Shown piece after piece: positions 10,135-63,396 of a DNA stretch of 64,000 bases (position 1 is the first letter of the stretch; each line of letters opens with the position of its first letter). A program made the position numbers and the translations under genes. Below the pieces are notes generated by a model that ran no database searches, was not told where the DNA came from, and saw only the letters and a program-made list of their open reading frames with translations. The stretch is from Candidatus Poribacteria bacterium (GTDB lineage Bacteria; Poribacteria; WGA-4E; WGA-3G): positions 1,728,001 through 1,792,000 of the forward strand of contig CAXXLX010000001.1 in the NCBI GenBank assembly GCA_963665235.2, given 5' to 3'.

Positions 10135-11241
10135 TTAAAGACAATTGACAAATTCAGTGAGTGCTTTTCGATACCGCTCTAAAGGTTCAGAATTGATTTG
10201 AACCTGTTTACCGTGAACCTTATGTGGTCCGGCTCGAAGACTATTTAACGGTATTCCTTTGAGTGTCATAATCACACATGCACTGTGATAGTCAGGTATC
10301 TCTATGAACCTCTCACTTGGTAACTCTTTAGGGTTCGCATAGATCAGACGATGCTTTTCATGGAGGCTATCTAACGTTGTCTTAATAGACTCACTCACAG
10401 CCTCAAAAGCTCTACTTGCTTTGCCACGATAGATGGTTACTCGGTTACTAACAAAGGTGTGGAGTTTCGGAATATCTAAACCCTCTTCCTTTGCCCTATT
10501 GGCAAAGTTGATTCTTGCATAAGTTGCCATCTTCGGGTCGGTTTCCATACTGTGACCATAAAGCAGCGCGACGACATTCCCAACAGCCCTGCGCGAACTA
10601 TCATCAGGTGTAAAAGGCACAACAAGATTTTCAGATGCAGCGAATGCTAATTGAGTATAGATAGCAAAACTCGGATTACAGTCAAGGATAAAAAGTGTAT
10701 CTCTGTCCCCGCTCCGTTGACGTAAAGCGATTGTCAAGTCTTTAATCCAACTGAGCACTTGTCTCCATGCAGTTACTGGAAGGGCAAGCTGAGATGTTTG
10801 GCGAATCGCTTCTGAAAGGATTTCCAACAGGTAGTCGCCGCATACTAAAAGTAAATTGCCTGGCAGTTTCGCGTTGAAGTTCCGAGGTCGACACACATAG
10901 GGAGACACATTCTCGATAGGATGGAACGGAGAATTCAACCGTGCTTCAAGGTAACCTGCGACTGTAGCACGCGGTTTTTTTCCTATCAGTTTGTTTATCA
11001 CATCATAATTTTTGTGAATTACATCATAATTTTCGTCGTCGGACATTTCATCGTTAGCATCGGTCCTGATTGAGATGTCAGAATCCAGAAGCAACATCTC
11101 AGAGACACTTGCCTGCGGGCAAAGGTCTATCACATAGATATCGGTGTCCGGGTAAGTGCGGGCATATTCGGTGGCTGCGACAAAGCTTAAGAAACTTTTA
11201 CCAACCCCGCCTTTATTGTTCCAAAACGCATAAGCTGTCAT
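10135..11241 (-). CDS. ParA/Soj-like ATPase
   Basis: YAFWNNKGGVGKS deviant Walker A, IDLCPQAS, LDCNPSF. Confidence 0.88.
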   Translation of the reverse strand: MTAYAFWNNKGGVGKSFLSFVAATEYARTYPDTDIYVIDLCPQASVSEMLLLDSDISIRTDANDEMSDDENYDVIHKNYDVINKLIGKKPRATVAGYLEARLNSPFHPIENVSPYVCRPRNFNAKLPGNLLLVCGDYLLEILSEAIRQTSQLALPVTAWRQVLSWIKDLTIALRQRSGDRDTLFILDCNPSFAIYTQLAFAASENLVVPFTPDDSSRRAVGNVVALLYGHSMETDPKMATYARINFANRAKEEGLDIPKLHTFVSNRVTIYRGKASRAFEAVSESIKTTLDSLHEKHRLIYANPKELPSERFIEIPDYHSACVIMTLKGIPLNSLRAGPHKVHGKQVQINSEPLERYRKALTEFVNCL

Positions 11242-11288
11242 AATCCCTTCCTTTCTCAAAAAAGTGAAAACGTTTAACCTCGTTTAGA

Positions 11289-11317
11289 ATTTTAACACAA
11301 ATTGGTACGAATGTCAA
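11289..11317 (-). promoter_or_regulatory. Sigma70-type promoter of ParA-HEPN operon
   Basis: Minus strand TTGACA-17-TAAAAT. Confidence 0.6.
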
Positions 11318-11425
11318 AAGATTTTTGCCTTTTGTTTTTGAAAAAAAATCGTCAATTTCACAGAAACGTGATATAATGTTTATCAGAAACCTATTTAGCG
11401 ATTAAAAGTTTGGAGATGTGAAAAA

Positions 11426-13017
11426 ATGCGTCGTTTCGAAACTCAAGGCCGTGTGTATCCTGAACATAACTACTTCGTCCCTCGCACCTCGGAGGTCAAG
11501 GATTTTATTGCCCGTGCCAAAGCGGGACGGTATATCGTCCTCTTCGCACCACGACAGACCGGGAAAACAACCTTCTTCCGATTAGCACTTGATGAACTCG
11601 CGCACAACGATGCAACCTATCTTCCAATTTATCTCAATTTTGAGGTGTACGAAGACTGCACACCTTCAGATTTCTACGGGGGCCTTGCAGAGGATATACA
11701 TGAGAAAATTGTGGAGGTTTTTCAGACGCAGGGAGAGGCGTTGCCGGAGACGCTAACGCATTTTTTAGAGAATGCACAGCTAACAGACCAACTTTCAATG
11801 CGAAGATTCTTCAGAGAATTGGCACGTTTTCTGAAGGACCGGCGGGTTGTCCTCATCATTGACGAGTTTGATGCCATTCCGCGTGGTGCATTGAAAGGAT
11901 TTCTCCGTTGGCTCCGGGATACCTATCTATCGGGCAAGACGCGATGTCCGCATAGCGTCTGTCTTGTCGGCGTTAAGAGCATCATGCAACTTGACTATGA
12001 CAGGTCCATTTCCCCCTTCAATATCCAAGATGAGTTTCACCTACCCAATTTTACGTTGGAACAAGTGTGCGAACTCCTATCACAATATACTGATGAAGTC
12101 GGACAAGCCTTCGCATCGGAGGTCATCACGTCTCTCTATAAACAGACTGCCGGGCAACCCTTCCTCGTCAACCGAATAGCGCAAATACTCACTGAAGAAT
12201 TGGATATTCCGAAACGGAGACGCTGACAATGATGCACTTCGCACGGGCACACAAGCAACTCCTAACGGAAAGGAATACGAACATTGAGCATCTAAGAACG
12301 AATGTCCGACGGGACCGGCGTTTTGAAAAGATTCTATTGCGTATCGCTTCTTATGAAAAAGGTCTACGCTTCAATCCAGATGATGACCTTATGAACGACC
12401 TTGTAACTTATGGGGTTATCAGGGAAGCGGCTGATGGTATGTGTGAGATTATCAACCCAATTTATCAGCATCGTATCCTACAGATATTCAAACCGACCTT
12501 TAACGGACTTGAAGACATATACTTCCCCGAAGACTCCGATGTGAATTTTATTGATTATCTCACATCTACAGGTGAACTCAAGATGGAGCCGCTACTCAAT
12601 AATTTCCAAGCGTTCATCGCACGCGCTGGGTTCCGTATCCTACAGGTGCCGAAGACACCTCAAGAATATGTCGGGCAAAATCTACTTTATGCCTATCTGG
12701 ATCACTTTGTTCATATTGTGGGCGCGGCTATGTTTTTAGAAGTTCAAACGGGACGGGGTAGAATAGACCTCCTTATTCTCCACAATCAGCAAAAGTACAT
12801 CATTGAGACAAAGATATGGGAGGGAAATAGCTACTACCAAGCTGGTAAAAAGCAGCTATCAGCCTATCTCAAATTGGAGGGGGCAGCCGAGGGATACTAT
12901 ATCGTCTTCGACCACCGCATGAATTCAATACCGCAGAGAGAAATAGAAACCGTGGATGGTGTGAAGATTCGGAGTTATGTCATTCCTGTGATGCAAGAAC
13001 GTCCCTCAGCCGTTTAG
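11426..13017 (+). pseudogene. AAA ATPase + PD-(D/E)XK nuclease, split by a 1-nt frameshift (ORFs 11426..12226 and 12229..13017)
   Basis: APRQTGKT, IIDEFD, GRIDL..IETK; CCGAAACGGAG here vs CCCAAAACGGAG in the intact paralog. Confidence 0.75.
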
Positions 13018-13147: not shown

Positions 13148-14740
13148 ATGCGCCGTTTCGAAACTCAAGGCCGTGTGTATCCTGAACATAACTACTTTGT
13201 CCCTCGAACCTCGGAGGTCAAGGATTTTATTACCCGTGCCAAAGCGGGACGATATATCGTCCTCTTCGCACCCCGGCAGACCGGGAAAACAACCTTCTTC
13301 CGATTAGCACTTGATGAACTCGCGCACAACGATGCAACCTATTTTCCACTTTATCTCAATTTTGAGGCGTATGAAGACTGTAACCCTTCAGATTTTTACG
13401 GGGGACTCACAGAGGATATACATCAGAAAATTGTGGAGGTTTTTCAGACGCGGGGAGAGGCGTTGCCAGAAACACTAACACATTTTTTGGAGAACGTTCA
13501 ACTAACCGATCATCTCTCAACGCGAAGATTCTTCAGAGAATTGGCACGTTTTCTGAAAGACCAGCGGGTTGTCCTCATCATTGACGAGTTTGATGCCATT
13601 CCGCGTGAGGCATTGAAAGGGTTTCTACGTTGGCTCCGCGATACCTATCTATCGGGCAAGACACGATGTCCGCATAGCGTCTGTCTTGTTGGTGTTAAGA
13701 ATATCACACAACTTGACTATGACAGGTCTATTTCGCCTTTCAATATTCAAGAGGAGTTTCACCTGCCCAATTTCACGCTTGAACAGGTGACCGAACTCTT
13801 ATCACAATATACCGAAGAAGTCGGACAAGTCTTTGCATCGGAGGTCATCACGTCTCTCCATAAACAGACTGCCGGGCAACCCTTCCTCGTCAACCGAATA
13901 GCACAAATACTCACTGAAGAATTGAGTATTCCCAAAACGGAGACAATCACCCTATCCCATTTTGCGACAGCACACGCGCTACTTCTTGAGGAAGACAATA
14001 CGAACCTCACACACCTGATAACCAATATCCGTAGAGACCGCCGTTTCGAAAACTTCCTCATGGAAATTCTCAATTCCGATGAAGGGGTCCGATTCAACCT
14101 ACGGAATCCACTTATTAATGAATTAGCCACTTATGGGGTCATCACAAAAGGTGCGGACAATCTTTGTGAAATTGTTAACCCGATTTATCTCTATTGCATC
14201 ATTCAGGCGTTCAAACCAGCAGTGAATGGATTGGAGCGGGCTTATTTCCCTGAAGGACAGCTGACCGGCTTTCATACATATCTCACCTCTACCGGAGATG
14301 TTGCTATGGAGGCGTTATTGGATAACTTCCGAGATTTCATCGCACGCGCAGGATATAAGATATTGGAGGTTCCAGAAACGCCACAAGAATATGTCGGGCA
14401 GCACCTGCTCTTTTCCTATCTTGAACTATTTGTCGGGATAGTAGGCGGGGGGTTGTTCCTTGAAGTCCAAACTGGGCGTGGTAAAATAGACCTTCTCATT
14501 AGTCACAACCATCAAAAATACATCGTTGAGACGAAGATATGGCGGGGCTTAGTTCACTATGAGGCGGGCAAAAAACAGCTTGCCGCGTATGTGAATTTAG
14601 CGGGTGCGGTAGGTGGATATTATATCATTTTTGACCATCGGCACTCCCCAGAATCGCGGATAGAAACAGAGACGATTGACGGTGTAAAGATTCGGAGTTA
14701 TGTCATTCCTGTGATGCAGGAACGTCCCTCAGCCGTTTAG
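13148..14740 (+). CDS. AAA ATPase with C-terminal PD-(D/E)XK nuclease domain
   Basis: APRQTGKT, IIDEFD, TAGQPFLV, EVQTGRGKIDL...IVETK. Confidence 0.88.
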   Translation: MRRFETQGRVYPEHNYFVPRTSEVKDFITRAKAGRYIVLFAPRQTGKTTFFRLALDELAHNDATYFPLYLNFEAYEDCNPSDFYGGLTEDIHQKIVEVFQTRGEALPETLTHFLENVQLTDHLSTRRFFRELARFLKDQRVVLIIDEFDAIPREALKGFLRWLRDTYLSGKTRCPHSVCLVGVKNITQLDYDRSISPFNIQEEFHLPNFTLEQVTELLSQYTEEVGQVFASEVITSLHKQTAGQPFLVNRIAQILTEELSIPKTETITLSHFATAHALLLEEDNTNLTHLITNIRRDRRFENFLMEILNSDEGVRFNLRNPLINELATYGVITKGADNLCEIVNPIYLYCIIQAFKPAVNGLERAYFPEGQLTGFHTYLTSTGDVAMEALLDNFRDFIARAGYKILEVPETPQEYVGQHLLFSYLELFVGIVGGGLFLEVQTGRGKIDLLISHNHQKYIVETKIWRGLVHYEAGKKQLAAYVNLAGAVGGYYIIFDHRHSPESRIETETIDGVKIRSYVIPVMQERPSAV

Positions 14741-57879: not shown

Positions 57880-57985
57880 ATCGCGTGAACAGCACGCTCC
57901 TACAGAAGACGCTGACGCAGGGTCGCGTGCGCAGCACGCTCCTACAGAAGACGGTGGCGTGTGCAGCTTGCTCCTACAGAAGAGA
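57880..57985 (+). repeat. GTAG-type REP cluster (GCACGCTCCTACAGAAGA x3)
   Basis: Three copies (third degenerate); inverted copy at ~43847-43875. Confidence 0.75.
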
Positions 57986-58064
57986 CAAAGACAGTCGCGA
58001 GCGGAGTGCTTAAATGCCATGCGCGCATTTGGCGTTGATTTGGAAAACTAAATATCTGTAGGTT

Positions 58065-59255
58065 TTATGAGTTCTGGTTAGCCTGTGCAATTGCATGTTC
58101 AAAAGTTTTTTTATAAACAGTGCTATTGAGCCGCTCGATGATGAAGTTTTCAAGATTATGTTTTTCTTCGCGGACTCGACGTGCCTCAAAGTTGAATGTG
58201 TATAAATTATGACAGGCTCGCCGATGAATATGGTTCACTCCATCTCGATCTTCCAGATAGTCTAGGTAAGAAAAAGCATCTGACTCATTCTTAATTTCCC
58301 AAAGACTTCCTTCTTCCCAATTTTTGGGGGTGAATTTTTCTTCACTTATTAATTTCAATAGATGGTTTGCAAACCTACGCCGTATGTGTTCATATTTTTC
58401 AGGGTCTTTTTCTTTTTCACGAGCGGAGAATCTACTCCACGGAAAACCGGGTAATTGAACATTTTTAAATGCGGCACTGAGAATCCAACTTTGTGAATCA
58501 ACGGTGTTAGCTCCACAGTAAAATGCAAATAACATTAGCAGTGCGGACCCTAACGAAAAACAGTGAACGTGAGCGTTTGGCAGCAGTCGGCGGACTGTGC
58601 AGATAATATCAATTACTGTGCGCTTGCTACCGTTACGTGCTAGCGGTGCCAAGCTCCCAATGCCGATGATGGGAGGTTCCTCTCCCCAAATTTTGAAGAT
58701 ATCATCAAAAGAACGTGATAGTGTGTCAGCATCATGTCCATGAAGCACAGGCATTAATTGGAAGTTAGGCGAGACATCTAAGCCCATGAGTTTTTCGAAC
58801 ATTCTTTGCGTATTTGATACGGTATTTGCCCACCGTCTCTCAATTTCGTCCCGATCGGCGTTTGGTAAAAACGGATGATCGAGGACAACTGAGATATCCG
58901 CCTTAAGTTCGATTCCAATTTTAAGAACATCTATCGGATCTATGCTGATTTCGGTCTGTTTTTGAAAATTAAAAGCTCCGGAATCAAGCATCAAGGGACC
59001 ATTAAATTCAATAAACTCATGAAGCTTGCACTGTTTTTCCCTGATTTCTGAGGCAGCTATTCGCGTTCGTGTATTGGCTAATAGATCAAAGGCATTAACG
59101 AGAACAGCTTGGGTATTGGTGATTTCCCAGGGAGCTCGGCGCAACCCCGCACGTGGGTAATCACCTATGCGATAACCGGTAAAAAGGTTTGGTATCTCCA
59201 AAGGGGTCCTGAAAAGAGGGTGTCGTGTGTCACATTTTGATTCATTAATTACCAT
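58065..59255 (-). CDS. tRNA-guanine transglycosylase-superfamily protein (DpdA/TGT-like)
   Basis: LMLDSGAF, VVLDHP, PVLHG, IGIGSL, HVHCFSLG, VDSQSW, CHNL. Confidence 0.8.
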   Translation of the reverse strand: MVINESKCDTRHPLFRTPLEIPNLFTGYRIGDYPRAGLRRAPWEITNTQAVLVNAFDLLANTRTRIAASEIREKQCKLHEFIEFNGPLMLDSGAFNFQKQTEISIDPIDVLKIGIELKADISVVLDHPFLPNADRDEIERRWANTVSNTQRMFEKLMGLDVSPNFQLMPVLHGHDADTLSRSFDDIFKIWGEEPPIIGIGSLAPLARNGSKRTVIDIICTVRRLLPNAHVHCFSLGSALLMLFAFYCGANTVDSQSWILSAAFKNVQLPGFPWSRFSAREKEKDPEKYEHIRRRFANHLLKLISEEKFTPKNWEEGSLWEIKNESDAFSYLDYLEDRDGVNHIHRRACHNLYTFNFEARRVREEKHNLENFIIERLNSTVYKKTFEHAIAQANQNS

Positions 59256-60417
59256 TTTCCACAATCTGTCTCATCCGTTCGCGCATTCTCGGTAGAAAAG
59301 CCCCCGGTAAAACATCTATTTCAGCTTTTTGAGCCTCTGCTTTTAACGAACGGTATTCTTCGGCAACAATTTCTTGTGTTAGCGGTTTTAATTCATCAGG
59401 CCGGGTTACCTCAGATTGTTTTCCCGGGGCTTTGGAATGGACCTCATATCTGTCGCGCTCACTGTTCAGATAGTCGGATACATACTCGATCGCAAGCTCT
59501 TCACTACTTATAGGTTGGAGATTTACCGGTTCGCCTAAACGGTGCTCAATTGCCGGGTACTGTTTAAGGTCTTTCGGTTCAGGCGTAGTTGCAGTGACAA
59601 AAAAAACAGATTCCTTTAATATGTCGAAAAGATGCCGCAGGTCTTGCGCGTATAGTGCTTGCCGTGAACGTGTTAGTGCTTCAAATATCTCCTCAAATTC
59701 GTCAAAGAGCAGGACAACACCATCACATAGGCCTACCTCTTTTAGAACAAGCAGTAATCCGTTCAAGAACCGCATAGCAATTGAAGAGCTGGTGATGTCA
59801 ATAGGTGGCACTCGATCTCCATCATCGGTTAAGAGTCTCTTATCTGCTACCGTAAGTTTTTGCTGCCCTTTTAACCATCGAAGGAAAGCATCTTTCTGCC
59901 GTTCTTCCGGAGACAAAAAGGATATTTGAGCAGGTTTAGCAATAGCTTTAAGTGCCTTCAAAGGTTCACTAGCGGACTTAAACTGTGACGACAAAGTATC
60001 AATTGAATCTGATTTCTGTAGTTCTGCAATCAAGTGATCTAAGAAATGTCCAGCAAGCTTATCGATAATTTGGCGGTGAATAGCAAAGTAGCTCTCCCCG
60101 GGCGCATAGACGTAAATCGGGTAAAAATTCCCGATAAGTTTACGTTCCCTTGCTTCGTCAGTCAACCGTTCAAAGTAGCGTAGGATATTTGTCTTCCCCG
60201 CGCCATTTTTTCCGTTAATACGCAACCGCTTTGCGTCTTCGGAAAAGCTCTGTAACTCACGGACAAACCTATCCTTAATATCATCTTGGTCGGTACAAAC
60301 ATCAAACTCTGTTTCACCGCGTCCTGGGAACGGATTTTTAACGAGAAAATGTTTTTCGTAAGGGGTGGGTTCTCCTGTTTCCGCTTTAAATAGAGAAAGA
60401 TCTTTTATTATTGTCAT
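59245..60417 (-). CDS. AAA+/P-loop ATPase
   Basis: NPF N-motif, GKNGAGKT Walker A, LLFDEFE Walker B, PAIEHRL. Confidence 0.85.
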   Translation of the reverse strand: MTIIKDLSLFKAETGEPTPYEKHFLVKNPFPGRGETEFDVCTDQDDIKDRFVRELQSFSEDAKRLRINGKNGAGKTNILRYFERLTDEARERKLIGNFYPIYVYAPGESYFAIHRQIIDKLAGHFLDHLIAELQKSDSIDTLSSQFKSASEPLKALKAIAKPAQISFLSPEERQKDAFLRWLKGQQKLTVADKRLLTDDGDRVPPIDITSSSIAMRFLNGLLLVLKEVGLCDGVVLLFDEFEEIFEALTRSRQALYAQDLRHLFDILKESVFFVTATTPEPKDLKQYPAIEHRLGEPVNLQPISSEELAIEYVSDYLNSERDRYEVHSKAPGKQSEVTRPDELKPLTQEIVAEEYRSLKAEAQKAEIDVLPGAFLPRMRERMRQIVENGN

Positions 60418-60419
60418 TT

Positions 60420-61343
60420 CTACACCTCCCTTTCCCAGCGAATTAGTTTTAATAGTTTGCCGTTGAGTATCACGCCATCCTCTAAATAGCGATATTCAAT
60501 CCACCGTGATTCTGGCGGTTTGCTATTGTCCAATAGTTTTGCAGCGATTCTTTCGTTAAGGATGTCTTTTCTTGGCCGTATTGAGGTAATTTTGGACCAT
60601 CCTGATAGTTCCCGGCGAAGTGTCGCTGGGGCTAGTGTGATTTCGCCTGGAAACGTCTCTACAAACTGTTTCAGCTTCATCTCAAAAGCCTGAAAGGAAA
60701 TATGTAATTCCTGACAAACGAAATGTGCTACACGTCCGAGGTTTGCATACCCCGATGTTTTATCGGCCTGCTTATACCCCTCTTTAAAAGCTGTTTTGAA
60801 GCATGCCGATGAAGGACGTTCTGCATCCCACTCTCCCCCCCAGTAGAGGATGGATTCAAAGGGTGAACGATAAGCATGTCCTACAGATACCGCCCATGTC
60901 CGAAATGTATCAAACGCTACGAAGGTAATGTCATATTTTTCCTTTAAGTTGCGTCCCAATTCGCTCCGCGCTTCTTTGTCCTGCTTTTTCGGAATTTCGA
61001 TCGCTTGTTCCTGTTTTAGACAATTCAAGAAACGTGCATAAGGCGGATAATTTGCTAATCCTCTATTCATTGGCAACAGGTAATCCCCTGAGTTCCAAGC
61101 CTGAATGAACTCATGGAAATTTTCGGTTAAATGCAAAATATCCTGCGCTTGTGCATTGCGATTAATCCAACGGGACGCTTCGAAGATTCGTAGGATATCC
61201 TTTATCCGGCGTTCAAGGCGTTTTATTGGACCTTGACTCTCTATAATCTCGCGAAGGGTATGTAGAGAGAGCGCGTTTTCAACACGCTCTCTCTCAATAG
61301 CATCAGCAACAGAGAGCAATTTATTGACAGTAATCGGATCCAT
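60420..61343 (-). CDS. Hypothetical protein (possible winged-helix DNA-binding)
   Basis: 307-aa ORF abutting both neighbours; no clear motif. Confidence 0.75.
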   Translation of the reverse strand: MDPITVNKLLSVADAIERERVENALSLHTLREIIESQGPIKRLERRIKDILRIFEASRWINRNAQAQDILHLTENFHEFIQAWNSGDYLLPMNRGLANYPPYARFLNCLKQEQAIEIPKKQDKEARSELGRNLKEKYDITFVAFDTFRTWAVSVGHAYRSPFESILYWGGEWDAERPSSACFKTAFKEGYKQADKTSGYANLGRVAHFVCQELHISFQAFEMKLKQFVETFPGEITLAPATLRRELSGWSKITSIRPRKDILNERIAAKLLDNSKPPESRWIEYRYLEDGVILNGKLLKLIRWEREV

Positions 61344-62426
61344 TTAGCATTCCTCCCTGAGCTCCATCACATCGTAAGCAAAAAAACCTTTACGCGCCTT
61401 CTGTGAATAATAAACAAGTTCATATTTGCAAGACGGGTCCCCGTTTTCAAAACGGATGGTACTGAAGACTTGTGCCAAATCCCACAATAGATAATGGACA
61501 GACGTTAACATGACCCTCTGGTTGTAAGAATCGTATCGAACGGAACTGATTTCCGAAGGTAGAGAGGGAACACCGATATGGAGACTCCCTTGATTCTCTA
61601 ATGTTGCAAGCGAAGCCATATCCTTATCTGCGGTGCAAAGATAAACCCCTTGGTGGAGACCACGGTCCTGTTTGAGATTTTTCACACTTTCAATAATCAA
61701 CCTGTCGATATTTGGGCCGCCCTTGGACTGTCCTAAATGCTCTGGGAGAGTGGTTAGAATTTCCACGGGCCGCCATTGGCGAATGTGGTTTATCTCTCGG
61801 CTAATGCAAGAAACTTGCGGTCGTTGCTCCAAGACATCGCACTTCCCGATTTGGGTTTCAGCCTTTTTTTGGCTGTTTTGCCAAGTAGTATTCAAGTCAT
61901 TTACCTGCCGTTGGACTTCAGTCATTACAAAAACGGGCACAACTGTCCAGATGAGCACGTCGGATAAGATTTTGTGCAAGAAAGAAACCGCTGCCCGGCG
62001 TAACGCGCTTGTATCAGTAACAAGTATCAAGTAACCTTTTTCTGAAAGTCTTTTCATCACCTCTTGAAACCCGAACTTAACATTTTGCTCTTCCATCAAA
62101 CAAAACTCCGGGCGTAGAAGACCGGTTCGTAACGCACTTTCAGCAAGGACATCACGTATGATTTTTTCTGCTCTATCCGCTTGCCCCTCTTCTTTGGACA
62201 ACTCAGAGAAACGACATCTAATTTCTTGACTTGTCGCGGGCTTGAAAGTAAAAGGTAGAATCGGATATTGTCGCGCAGTTTCCTCGGATGCATCAATTGT
62301 GATTTCACCCAATTCGACATATTCACTTTCAGGGAGATGCGTTCCATCTGTATAGGAGACTTCCCATTTGCCCCAAAGTGGATATGCAGCAATGAACCTC
62401 TCTAGTGTAATTGCAGAACTATTCAT
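61344..62426 (-). CDS. PIN-like domain protein
   Basis: LVTDTSAL...VMTEVQ...IDRLII...LCTADKDMA acidic pattern. Confidence 0.7.
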   Translation of the reverse strand: MNSSAITLERFIAAYPLWGKWEVSYTDGTHLPESEYVELGEITIDASEETARQYPILPFTFKPATSQEIRCRFSELSKEEGQADRAEKIIRDVLAESALRTGLLRPEFCLMEEQNVKFGFQEVMKRLSEKGYLILVTDTSALRRAAVSFLHKILSDVLIWTVVPVFVMTEVQRQVNDLNTTWQNSQKKAETQIGKCDVLEQRPQVSCISREINHIRQWRPVEILTTLPEHLGQSKGGPNIDRLIIESVKNLKQDRGLHQGVYLCTADKDMASLATLENQGSLHIGVPSLPSEISSVRYDSYNQRVMLTSVHYLLWDLAQVFSTIRFENGDPSCKYELVYYSQKARKGFFAYDVMELREEC

Positions 62427-62847
62427 CAGAAATTCTCACTTTATAGTCAGCATGTGGGGGGTTCTGTAAAATTTCCTGCACAACTGCTAACAAAATAGTG
62501 CTTGATTGCAGCTCCAGCGTAGAAACCCGATCGGTAACTTCGTCAAGGATTTGATCCGGAGATTCTGCTATGTCCATTTGCGACTTCGCGCGCTCCGCTA
62601 GCTCATAAAGCATCCGATTTTTTATCGGCTCTGGTAGATAGAAATCAACTTCCCTCAGATTCGATGCAGGTTTTCCGGTTTCTGGATCTTCCGAGTCCAA
62701 ATTTTTCACCGTATTTAAGAGGCATTTAAAATCGAGCACAACTTCCTGTTCACCTATCCATTCTTGGAAATCATGCATAAGGAAATTTGGCACAACGTAG
62801 GTCTCGACCGCCTCCCCCGTTGATGGGTTAATAATTTCCACTTTCAT
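62419..62847 (-). CDS. Hypothetical acidic protein
   Basis: AAAGGTG RBS before MKVEII; overlaps next gene. Confidence 0.7.
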   Translation of the reverse strand: MKVEIINPSTGEAVETYVVPNFLMHDFQEWIGEQEVVLDFKCLLNTVKNLDSEDPETGKPASNLREVDFYLPEPIKNRMLYELAERAKSQMDIAESPDQILDEVTDRVSTLELQSSTILLAVVQEILQNPPHADYKVRISDE

Positions 62848-62878
62848 CAAAGCACCTTTCTGCAAGAGCGTCCGGCTC

Positions 62879-63325
62879 CTATTGCCATAACCATCTTTTC
62901 AATTCGGTTTGCTTTTTCCCTATTGGGCCGTCCGCGACAACAGATTCCGTAGACGTTGGAATCAAATCCTGCAAACCCTCAAATACCTTCAGGTAGGTTT
63001 TTCCAAGCACAAAACAGATTGAAGTGTAGTTGGTTCGTAAAATGTCTGAAAACGTTCTTTTGATGTGCGACTGCAACTTGACGACGCGTGACAAGTTCAT
63101 TTTTTGGTCATAAAATTCGGTTTGGAAATCCGCTGGGATAAGTCCATAGGCAGCAGATAAGATGTAGACATCTAATTGCCTTGCCTCTCCTGGACACTCA
63201 CGAAGAAAGCGACGTAAGACGAAAAACAGAGGGCCGTTGTACCGCTCAATTGCGGGTAACGGTTCATCAGAAGTATGTTTCCGCTGTGAGCAAGAGAGAA
63301 TAAGTAACCGTCGTTCACAGTTCAT
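62879..63325 (-). CDS. DUF6884/YaaA(DpdC)-like protein
   Basis: LILSCSQRK, AIERYNGP, ILSAAYGLI, YDQKM. Confidence 0.75.
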   Translation of the reverse strand: MNCERRLLILSCSQRKHTSDEPLPAIERYNGPLFFVLRRFLRECPGEARQLDVYILSAAYGLIPADFQTEFYDQKMNLSRVVKLQSHIKRTFSDILRTNYTSICFVLGKTYLKVFEGLQDLIPTSTESVVADGPIGKKQTELKRWLWQ

Positions 63326-63367: not shown

Positions 63368-63396
63368 ATTATACACCAAACGAATCAATTTTTCAA
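63368..63396 (-). promoter_or_regulatory. Sigma70 promoter of the six-gene TGT operon
   Basis: Minus strand TTGAAA-17-TATAAT. Confidence 0.6.

Follow-up and report, generated by a model that had tools for sequence, protein, structure and literature searches.

The window analysed here, 64,000 nucleotides (nt) of contig CAXXLX010000001.1 from a Candidatus Poribacteria bacterium of the sponge-symbiont type (positions 1,728,001 to 1,792,000 of the forward strand), carries a cassette of six co-directional genes on its minus strand, named G1 to G6 from 5' to 3' (Table 1). The cassette is best explained as a horizontally mobile, restriction-modification-like defence unit, organised around a 7-deazaguanine mark. 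An initial annotation, made from the sequence and a list of its open reading frames (ORFs), had described these genes as a tightly coupled operon, encoding a DUF6884 protein, a PIN protein, an AAA ATPase, a TGT-family enzyme and two proteins without assignment, and had proposed them as a candidate deazaguanine-linked defence system. The ORF list returned exactly the gene coordinates given there, and family scans agreed with all of the domain assignments. The successive gaps measured 13, -8, 0, 2 and -20 nt, negative values being overlaps; the initial annotation had given gaps of 0-31 nt, with overlap of some genes.

Table 1. Position and character of the features at the cassette locus (window coordinates; aa, amino acids; pI, isoelectric point)
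Feature	Position	Strand	Description
G1	62879-63325	-	148 aa; DUF6884; predicted YaaA/DpdC-type fold; pI 9.1
G2	62419-62865	-	148 aa; acidic, pI 4.4; no family matched
G3	61344-62426	-	360 aa; central PIN domain; N- and C-terminal flanking domains without assigned fold
G4	60420-61343	-	307 aa; basic, pI 9.0; predicted winged-helix array
G5	59245-60417	-	390 aa; ORC/Cdc6-BrxD-like AAA+ ATPase with a P-loop
G6	58065-59264 (window ORF, 399 aa); corrected 58065-59245	-	TGT superfamily
Predicted sigma-70-like promoter	63368-63396	-	TTGAAA-17 nt-TATAAT; about 43 nt 5' of the G1 start codon
REP-like 37-nt repeat	57881-57991		three tandem-like copies

Within the TGT superfamily, G6 was nearest to the archaeosine TGT (arcTGT), judging from profile comparisons. 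It matched the Pfam TGT family (PF01702) with 60.9 bits (cut-off 26.3; E = 1.5e-16) and passed the threshold of TIGR00449 (52.7 bits, cut-off 47.6). The arcTGT model TIGR00432 gave 75.6 bits, missing its cut-off of 350, and this match was confined to residues 70-264. G6 failed the DpdA equivalog NF041059 (22.3 bits, cut-off 200) and matched the PADLOC DpdA model weakly (18.7 bits, E = 1.5e-4). The best match to a solved structure, in a profile search of the PDB, was arcTGT 1iq8 (8.5e-14); no solved DpdA chain was among the four matches obtained at E <= 0.01. D94/S95, D129 and D256 of G6 aligned with Asp95/Ser96, Asp130 and Asp249 of 1iq8 (G6 residues are numbered after the 399-aa ORF; subtract six for the public protein P0001 introduced below). 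These base-binding positions (D94/S95 and D129) and the nucleophile (D256), together with H347, C351 and H352, were invariant among 18 orthologues. The CxCxxC zinc motif was found in none of the 18, and the only part of the zinc site retained by G6 was its C-terminal histidine (H352, within HRRACHNLY).

The 5' end of G6 was affected by a single-base discrepancy. Contigs from all three of the runs X1, X5 and X8, one of them near-identical to the window, possessed an extra base after position 59207; the base is missing from a short run of G on the coding strand (59207-59208), and this is probably a homopolymer assembly error. With one base more after 59207, the G6 frame starts at the ATG at 59245 and overlaps the stop codon of G5, so that residues 1-19 of the 399-aa ORF are spurious. 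P0001 (393 aa) begins MNQNVTHDTLFSG, as do its relatives, which corresponds to a start at the same ATG.

The initial annotation had supposed that this TGT was other than the housekeeping tRNA enzyme, and the rest of the genome bears this out: a canonical tgt gene (544 bits) is situated at C1:2609893, and housekeeping Tgt was therefore rejected as the identity of G6. The genome also encodes a separate TGT+DUF5591 paralogue elsewhere, a protein of 648 aa with an archaeosine-synthase-like architecture (L030:8682-11802, i.e., G000:C1:3776681-3779801), whose gene adjoins an iron alcohol dehydrogenase gene amid PhyH and sulfatase genes. The same pair recurred on the 17-kb contig C4 (L031), where TGT and DUF5591 were two ORFs beside a transposase.

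G1 matched Pfam DUF6884 with 38.1 bits (cut-off 30) and the PADLOC family PDC-M57A with E = 8.5e-9, while the PADLOC DpdC model, of 319 positions, was matched only across residues 18-73 (E = 0.043). The CxxxK (C12, K16) and LSAxxG (S57, A58, G61) motifs, which have been named for DUF6884 (PMC11701544), were invariant among 15 orthologues. Outside the Poribacteria-type loci, G1 had a C-terminal extension of approximately 100 aa (L013:1416-1721, L014, L016 and most metagenome loci), with the motif W-Y-V ... PKWLV ... LTG ... F ... EAR ... L ... QLG and no Pfam match. The only matches to G1 in phage genomes were six weak ones, from phages of Burkholderia and Streptomyces (27-33% identity).

The connection with deazaguanine, which the initial annotation had drawn, was strengthened by the genes found around related cassettes (a set of 40 loci, defined below). 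A gene of the Vut_1/YhhQ family of preQ0 transporters adjoined G1 at 13 of the 40 loci (Pfam, 117-181 bits), and at another (L055), genes for QueC (258 bits), a radical-SAM protein (QueE), QueD (128 bits), a DUF6884 protein and a G6 with 59% identity followed one another in a single string. DpdC itself matches DUF6884, and dpd islands carry preQ0 genes and YhhQ, according to PMC12235509. The two species genomes with YhhQ beside G1 (G176 and G578) had no real QueC (no more than 22.5 bits, over a partial match), and a third, without YhhQ beside G1 (G177), had QueC (205 bits). The genome of the window contains QueC, QueD, QueF and tgt, and lacks Vut_1. Its QueC (G000:C1:3470074-3470720) was matched in two overlapping frames, with 135 and 106 bits, which indicates either a frameshift or a further 1-nt assembly error. 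Overall, the link to deazaguanine is stronger than the initial annotation could know.

Among the genes between G1 and G6, G3 passed Pfam PIN_4 narrowly (22.1 bits, cut-off 21.9); orthologues from type-B loci (see below) gave E-values of 2e-8 and 4e-9. Its AlphaFold2 model, with a predicted local distance difference test (pLDDT) of 86.8 and a predicted template modelling score (pTM) of 0.88, placed a PIN domain at approximately residues 130-290. Foldseek retrieved SiRe_0806 (3.1e-5) and the PIN protein 3i8o (3.3e-5); in VIA-align, 3i8o gave Z = 13.1 (root-mean-square deviation 3.4, 132 residues aligned), SiRe_0806 (9jxw) gave Z = 12.8 with 224 aligned, and 3ix7 gave Z = 11.6. D138, E170, D241 and D267 were invariant across 28 sequences of both types. 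On the evidence of the modelled PIN fold and these four acidic residues, the PIN domain is predicted to be catalytically intact.

G5 scored 35 bits against Pfam BrxC_BrxD (cut-off 22.2), over residues 170-295 only, and matched generic AAA families also. The NCBIfam BrxD model NF033438 was missed (33.6 bits, cut-off 350); PADLOC BrxD gave 4.5e-9. PMC12839542 treats BrxD as a standalone AAA+ protein of the ORC/Cdc6 type. The Walker A (GAGKTN, G72-N77) and Walker B (D239, E240) motifs of G5, and an N-terminal NPFP motif, were invariant among 16 orthologues.

The remaining two genes, G2 and G4, had no match in Pfam, PADLOC, NCBIfam or PHROGs. G4 also lacked a sequence match in the PDB, and PDB profile searches with G1, G3, G4 and G5 produced nothing meaningful. 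The AlphaFold2 model of G4 (pLDDT 88, pTM 0.85) resembled multi-winged-helix proteins in its best Foldseek rows, all with E above 1e-3 (UFL1/DDRGK1, 7.8e-3; FokI, 1.6e-2), followed by Dcc1, Hel308, RPC62 and AlkX. VIA-align gave MukF (Z = 8.3, 78 aligned), Hel308 (Z = 8.1) and many MarR/PadR proteins (Z about 7). G4 is therefore likely, given these borderline scores, to be a winged-helix array as modelled, and is proposed to be a nucleic-acid recognition subunit. Relatives of G4 were found on none of 72,556 plasmids and nowhere in IMG/VR. A search of type-A G3 and G4 for a hypervariable recognition domain showed that pairwise identity was flat from domain to domain (0.61-0.75). For G2 there was no usable match in the ESM Atlas, and its relatives were detected solely within cassette loci. 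Where the middle block was of type A, they conserved the motif DSxDPETxEPxS...VDFYLPD; type-B loci had an unrelated ORF of 111-118 aa in the same position. The stop codon of G2 overlaps the start of G3 by 8 nt, and G2 may be a regulator or inhibitor of the PIN protein, as is proposed here.

Related cassettes were collected from species-representative genomes (18 loci, labelled Poribacteria, Latescibacterota and Chloroflexota), metagenome contigs (21 loci) and genome G171 (one locus), and these 40 loci were classified by tblastn. The middle block, G2 to G5, was of the window's own kind (type A) at 15 loci, not counting the window itself, and of a second kind (type B) at 14, with two more partial examples of type B. 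At five loci G1 stood directly beside G6, without a middle block. The other four (L009, L041, L052 and L058) were fragments at contig ends that displayed G5 and G6, or G6 only. The gene order that the initial annotation had offered as a candidate system was kept elsewhere, at 30 loci with a full or partial middle block; its recurrence is far beyond chance.

The two kinds of middle block differ from one another as units. G3, G4 and G5 showed 31-40% identity between types A and B, against 49-77% within a type, even across phyla. No such division was evident in G1 or G6; for instance, the G6 copies of L006 and L011 were 82% identical. In the G6 phylogeny, copies linked to type B nested twice within copies linked to type A (support of 98/97 and 95/97). 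Taken together, the identity matrices and the G6 tree indicate that G1 and G6 are a constant pair, while G2 to G5 have been swapped as one block. Both types may coexist, since genome G171 contained a complete type-B cassette plus a type-A cassette in which G1 was split by an insertion sequence (IS).

With G4 as the marker gene, the system was observed in 20 of the phylum's 176 genomes, in 16 of its 133 genomes of good quality and in 10 of its 31 genera; among 401 sampled Chloroflexota genomes the sole occurrence was the starting genome. The system is concentrated in Poribacteria-type genomes. Insertion sequences or frameshifts had broken G1, G3 or G5 in L001, L010, L014, L015 and genome G097. 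The last of these had two near-identical, decayed type-A copies (L036 and L037), with G3 frameshifted, G5 cut after approximately 52 residues and G6 missing, which suggests duplication followed by loss. Patchy spread, decay, defence genes as neighbours and alternative nuclease modules are the usual marks of defence systems.

The genes surrounding the cassettes were mostly unrelated from locus to locus, and included many associated with nucleases, defence or mobility. The initial annotation had observed that the operon lacked a DndB-like gene, a helicase and a PLD nuclease; a family scan upheld this for the six genes themselves, while the surroundings told otherwise. Relatives often had NurA-HerA or helicase-PLD genes downstream of G6: NurA-like and HerA genes occurred 3' of G6 at 11 loci, and a protein of 1840 aa combining DEAD, MZB and PLD domains occupied this position in L046. 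A DndB-like gene lies 16 kb upstream in the window's genome, within an Ssp/Pbe phosphorothioate cluster, and is the only DndB match there; PADLOC returned a tie between DndB and DpdB for this copy (39.6 and 39.4 bits). Such a gene abutted the cassette only in L003 and L005, where it was DndB according to PADLOC; these could be DpdB analogues or Dnd/Ssp regulators. In the Poribacteria loci L002, L003 and L018, orthologues of SspC, SspD and HNH directly abutted G1. Elsewhere, large DNA methyltransferases, DarT-Macro genes, resolvases and IS elements were found alongside.

Several of these neighbourhoods merit separate description. The Ssp/Pbe cluster of the window's genome (L034, G000:C1:1800001-1818000) is located 10-27 kb upstream of G1 on the same strand, and comprises SspC (516 bits by PADLOC), SspD (382), PbeA (671) and PbeC (178), in addition to two unknown ORFs, the DndB/DpdB-like gene, an HNH protein and an AAA_15 gene split by an IS. 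Between this cluster and the cassette, a HATPase_c_3 protein of 568 aa (MzaB-like in PADLOC, 62 bits) precedes an ORF of 162 aa without a family (L029:7609-9800, i.e., G000:C1:1798609-1800800), and the two may represent a further pair of defence genes. In L013, a Macro-domain gene and a DarT gene, forming a DarTG-type pair, came directly after NurA-HerA (10156-12005). Resolvase (serine recombinase) genes flanked the cassette in two Chloroflexota loci (L015:1995-2657; L016:2647-3090 and 13338-13988); in L016 they stood on either side, at a distance of about 10 kb from one another, suggesting that a small mobile element carries the cassette.

Immediately around the cassette in the window, the flanks were as the initial annotation had reported: a Laminin_G_3 protein was found upstream, in agreement with the LamG gene named there, and the repetitive extragenic palindromic (REP) cluster downstream was recovered as three copies of a 37-nt repeat. 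The genome, of 5.3 Mb, contains 162 copies of the 14-nt core of this repeat, against 0.04 expected, and the element displayed very high contig depth in sequencing runs. The GC content of the cassette was 43.8%, compared with 47.6 +/- 1.6% for the genome (2.4th percentile). The predicted promoter ahead of G1 agreed with the consensus at 11 of 12 positions; promoter-like sites were not in excess in the region (12, against 9.1 +/- 2.7 in shuffled sequence). Both its -35 and -10 boxes were kept in five of 11 aligned upstream regions (the window, L002, L003, L004 and L035), the upstream genes being different. A metatranscriptome contig from a relative of approximately 95% identity terminates at 63368, which gives a weak hint. 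Two metatranscriptome libraries of one study (X8 and X9) provided contigs over parts of all six genes, from a relative 90-99% identical; these were not counted as transcription, since DNA carry-over is possible and contigs show neither strand nor level.

With moderate confidence, it is proposed that G1 and G6 mark DNA with a 7-deazaguanine, and that G2 to G5 restrict DNA that is unmarked. The chemistry of G1, the roles of G2 to G5 and protection against phages would then be as follows. G6 would exchange guanine in the host's own DNA for preQ0, obtained by host synthesis in the present genome and by YhhQ-type import in relatives. G1, as a minimal version of DUF6884, could process the inserted base, for example by converting its nitrile to an amide in the manner of DpdC. 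G4 and G5 would load onto DNA and sense the absence of the mark, at which point G3 would cut the nucleic acid of the invader. The acidic G2, putatively coupled to G3 in translation, would hold it in check. This Dpd-like logic is favoured because G1 and G6 behave as a modification module that needs preQ0, and the swapped blocks as alternative restriction modules. A constant pair with swapped blocks also recalls the phosphorothioate modification genes with their different restriction partners.

Several observations weigh against this interpretation. G6 is far closer to the archaeosine tRNA TGT (75.6 bits) than to DpdA (22.3 bits), and it is without the zinc site CXCX2CX22H, which DpdA proteins are stated to conserve (PMC10164549). 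Cap10, which likewise lacks the zinc site, binds a protein-linked base and not nucleic acid (bioRxiv 10.1101/2025.04.06.647259). DpdA requires the ATPase DpdB in vitro, according to PMC10164549, yet the operon has no DndB-like gene; nor is G5 a likely dedicated helper of G6, since it co-varies with G3 and G4 instead. DNA as the substrate is argued from the neighbouring genes. The relatives of the PIN domain by fold are mostly RNases or proteins of unknown function, and so G3 may be directed at RNA. For G4, the assignment as a winged-helix protein depends on borderline scores. The absence of QueC from G176 and G578 may reflect an assembly gap, the completeness of both genomes not being given. 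Finally, the occurrence of two types in one genome is unexplained if A and B read a single mark.

Four other explanations were weighed against the favoured restriction-modification reading. The cassette might be a sensor or eraser of a type-IV-like kind, with G6 removing or exchanging the base in modified phage DNA, G1 binding the lesion and G2 to G5 destroying the DNA, while the host stays unmarked. TGT enzymes do catalyse base exchange (PMC10164549), G6 is no DpdA equivalog, the DUF6884 member YfjM was found among binders of abasic and RNA-base lesions (PMC11701544), and glycosylases attacking 7-deazaguanine phage DNA are a described class of defence (bioRxiv 10.1101/2025.10.29.685425). A pure sensor would need no supply of free base, however, and the genes for that supply travel with the cassette (YhhQ at 13 loci; QueC, QueE and QueD at one), an association that holds in the two genomes without QueC. 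Since the cassette travels with precursor-supply genes, modification plus restriction fits better; moreover, pairs of G1 and G6 without an effector block resemble an orphan modification module, and the sensor is considered unlikely. A scenario directed at RNA, in which G6 would place 7-deazaguanine in host tRNA or other RNA and the PIN RNase would spare modified and cleave unmodified RNA (e.g., tRNA that is newly made or encoded by a phage) to bring about abortive infection, draws on the same arcTGT affinity of G6 (TIGR00432 and 1iq8), on the SMG6, Nmd4, Utp24 and VapC RNases among the fold relatives of the PIN domain and on the VapBC-type layout of a small gene overlapping the PIN gene from upstream. 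The company of these genes speaks for DNA: DpdC, which acts on DNA, and YaaA, which binds it, are of the same family as G1; a winged-helix array and an ORC/Cdc6-like ATPase serve as partners; and the alternative modules downstream (NurA-HerA, helicase-PLD) are DNA machines. The host, in addition, already possesses both tgt and the TGT+DUF5591 paralogue, and an RNA target for the whole system seems rather improbable.

It is equally doubtful that G6 follows the example of Cap10, binding 7-deazaguanine or transferring it onto a protein or small molecule, so that the PIN effector is kept off until infection and DNA is never marked. Cap10 has a zinc-site-less TGT fold that holds a protein-linked 7-amido-7-deazaguanine (bioRxiv 10.1101/2025.04.06.647259), CxCxxC is absent from G6 also, and TGT-like 'TIM-B' domains have been proposed as negative regulators of linked toxins (bioRxiv 10.64898/2026.10.19.760177). 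Neither a QueC-like conjugating enzyme nor a CD-NTase is present among the six genes, though, and G6 varies independently of the effector block, which speaks against a close partnership between the proteins. In addition, pairs of G1 and G6 are situated beside quite different nuclease modules. A function outside immunity, whether in DNA repair, in epigenetic marking or as an addiction cassette stabilising its mobile element, has a comparably low probability. It would accord with the ties of YaaA and YfjM relatives to DNA damage (PMC11701544), with the toxin-antitoxin-like arrangement of G2 and G3, with the resolvases and IS elements at several loci and with the want of any relative on phages, plasmids or IMG/VR contigs that gives a direct clue. 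But repair genes are usually vertical and syntenic, and the flanks here are mostly unrelated; patchy spread, frequent decay, known defence genes nearby and alternative nuclease modules again point to defence.

A more specific form of the proposal that G1 and G6 mark DNA is advanced tentatively, as possible rather than probable. According to this, G1 and G6 would constitute a second, Dpd-independent lineage of 7-deazaguanine DNA marking, in which an arcTGT-like insertase without the zinc motif or DpdB operates with a 'mini-DpdC', and the pair would provide a fixed docking frame, in which recombination exchanges whole restriction cassettes (the PIN block of type A or B, NurA-HerA or helicase-PLD) either in the space between G1 and G6 or behind them. 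If true, Dpd would be joined by another family of bacterial systems that modify DNA with 7-deazaguanine, and the compact insertase of that family, apparently free of DpdB and of the zinc site, would bear on the route by which TGT enzymes passed from tRNA to DNA. Constant bookends with an exchangeable middle would amount to a natural experiment, coupling one epigenetic mark to different restriction machines. The block of PIN, winged-helix and ORC-like ATPase proteins would represent an uncharacterised type of effector, and G3, if the proposal holds, the first example of a PIN nuclease that reads a base modification. Modification-specific enzymes of such kinds have also found practical use, both in marking DNA and in reading it.

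The initial annotation had expected that no complete known system would be matched, and no PADLOC model set fitted the six genes when the models were scanned individually, without the system-level rules of PADLOC or DefenseFinder; the only matches of note were PDC-M57A for G1, BrxD for G5 and the weak DpdA match of G6. Membership of Dpd, BREX, BREX-Related Capture (BRC) and type IV CBASS was rejected, as defining features of each are absent from the six genes. For BREX, there was no PglZ, PglX or BrxC match among them, and G5 fell below the BrxD cut-off. Type IV CBASS shares with the cassette an anti-phage operon containing a TGT fold (Cap10), with its aspartates kept and zinc site lost; it differs in that no CD-NTase or other nucleotidyltransferase and no QueC-like Cap9 occur among the six genes, and in that the partners of G6 are a putatively DpdC-type protein and effectors of DNA type. 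The 8-nt overlap of G2 and G3 is a VapBC-like arrangement, and G2 has no match to an antitoxin family.

Nearest in idea among described systems are BRC and the HerA/FtsK capture systems, which combine a TGT, an ORC/Cdc6 AAA+ ATPase, a fast-evolving winged-helix DNA-binding protein and effector nucleases (PMC12839542). The cassette shares the TGT, the ORC/Cdc6-type ATPase and the winged-helix protein, along with HerA and a NurA-like gene in 11 relatives. In BRC, however, a HerA/FtsK translocase is universal and is accompanied by PglZ, DUF6079 and DUF4007, and no DpdC homologue was found, as that paper states; by Pfam, the window's cassette has no HerA, PglZ, STAND NTPase, DUF6079, DUF4007 or GNAT, and a DUF6884 gene is constant here.

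Among phosphorothioate systems, the SspABCD modification module pairs with alternative restriction partners, namely SspE, SspFGH and PbeABCD. The cassette would share this principle of one modification module with interchangeable restriction modules, and Ssp genes are close by in the window's genome, but the chemistry is that of phosphorothioation in one case and putative base exchange in the other. Nor is the cassette simply an Ssp restriction partner, because 22 six-gene loci have no Ssp gene in the flanks seen, although at the Poribacteria loci it may be one. A reappraisal of Dnd (PMC10853773) contained no mention of TGT, transglycosylase, deazaguanine or NurA. The literature on DUF6884 held nothing on this cassette, and no paper was found on PDC-M57. 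The gene set was undescribed in the literature searched, a search that did not extend to the supplementary tables of PMC12839542 and PMC12235509 or to one MMBR 2024 review of 7-deazaguanines.

A further comparison is with Dpd (dpdA-K, from Salmonella Montevideo and others). The two have in common a DUF6884-type protein, an enzyme of the TGT superfamily and a neighbourhood containing preQ0 genes or YhhQ, and in both a modification module appears joined to a restriction module of nuclease and ATPase. They differ as follows: G6 falls below the DpdA cut-off, lacks CXCX2CX22H and is nearer to arcTGT; G1, at 148 aa, barely touches the 319-position DpdC model; DpdB and all of DpdD-K (helicases, PLD) are absent from the six genes; and a block of PIN, winged-helix, ORC-like ATPase and acidic proteins is set between the two modification genes. 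The cassette is not a member of Dpd, but has the look of a so far undescribed relative of that restriction-modification system.

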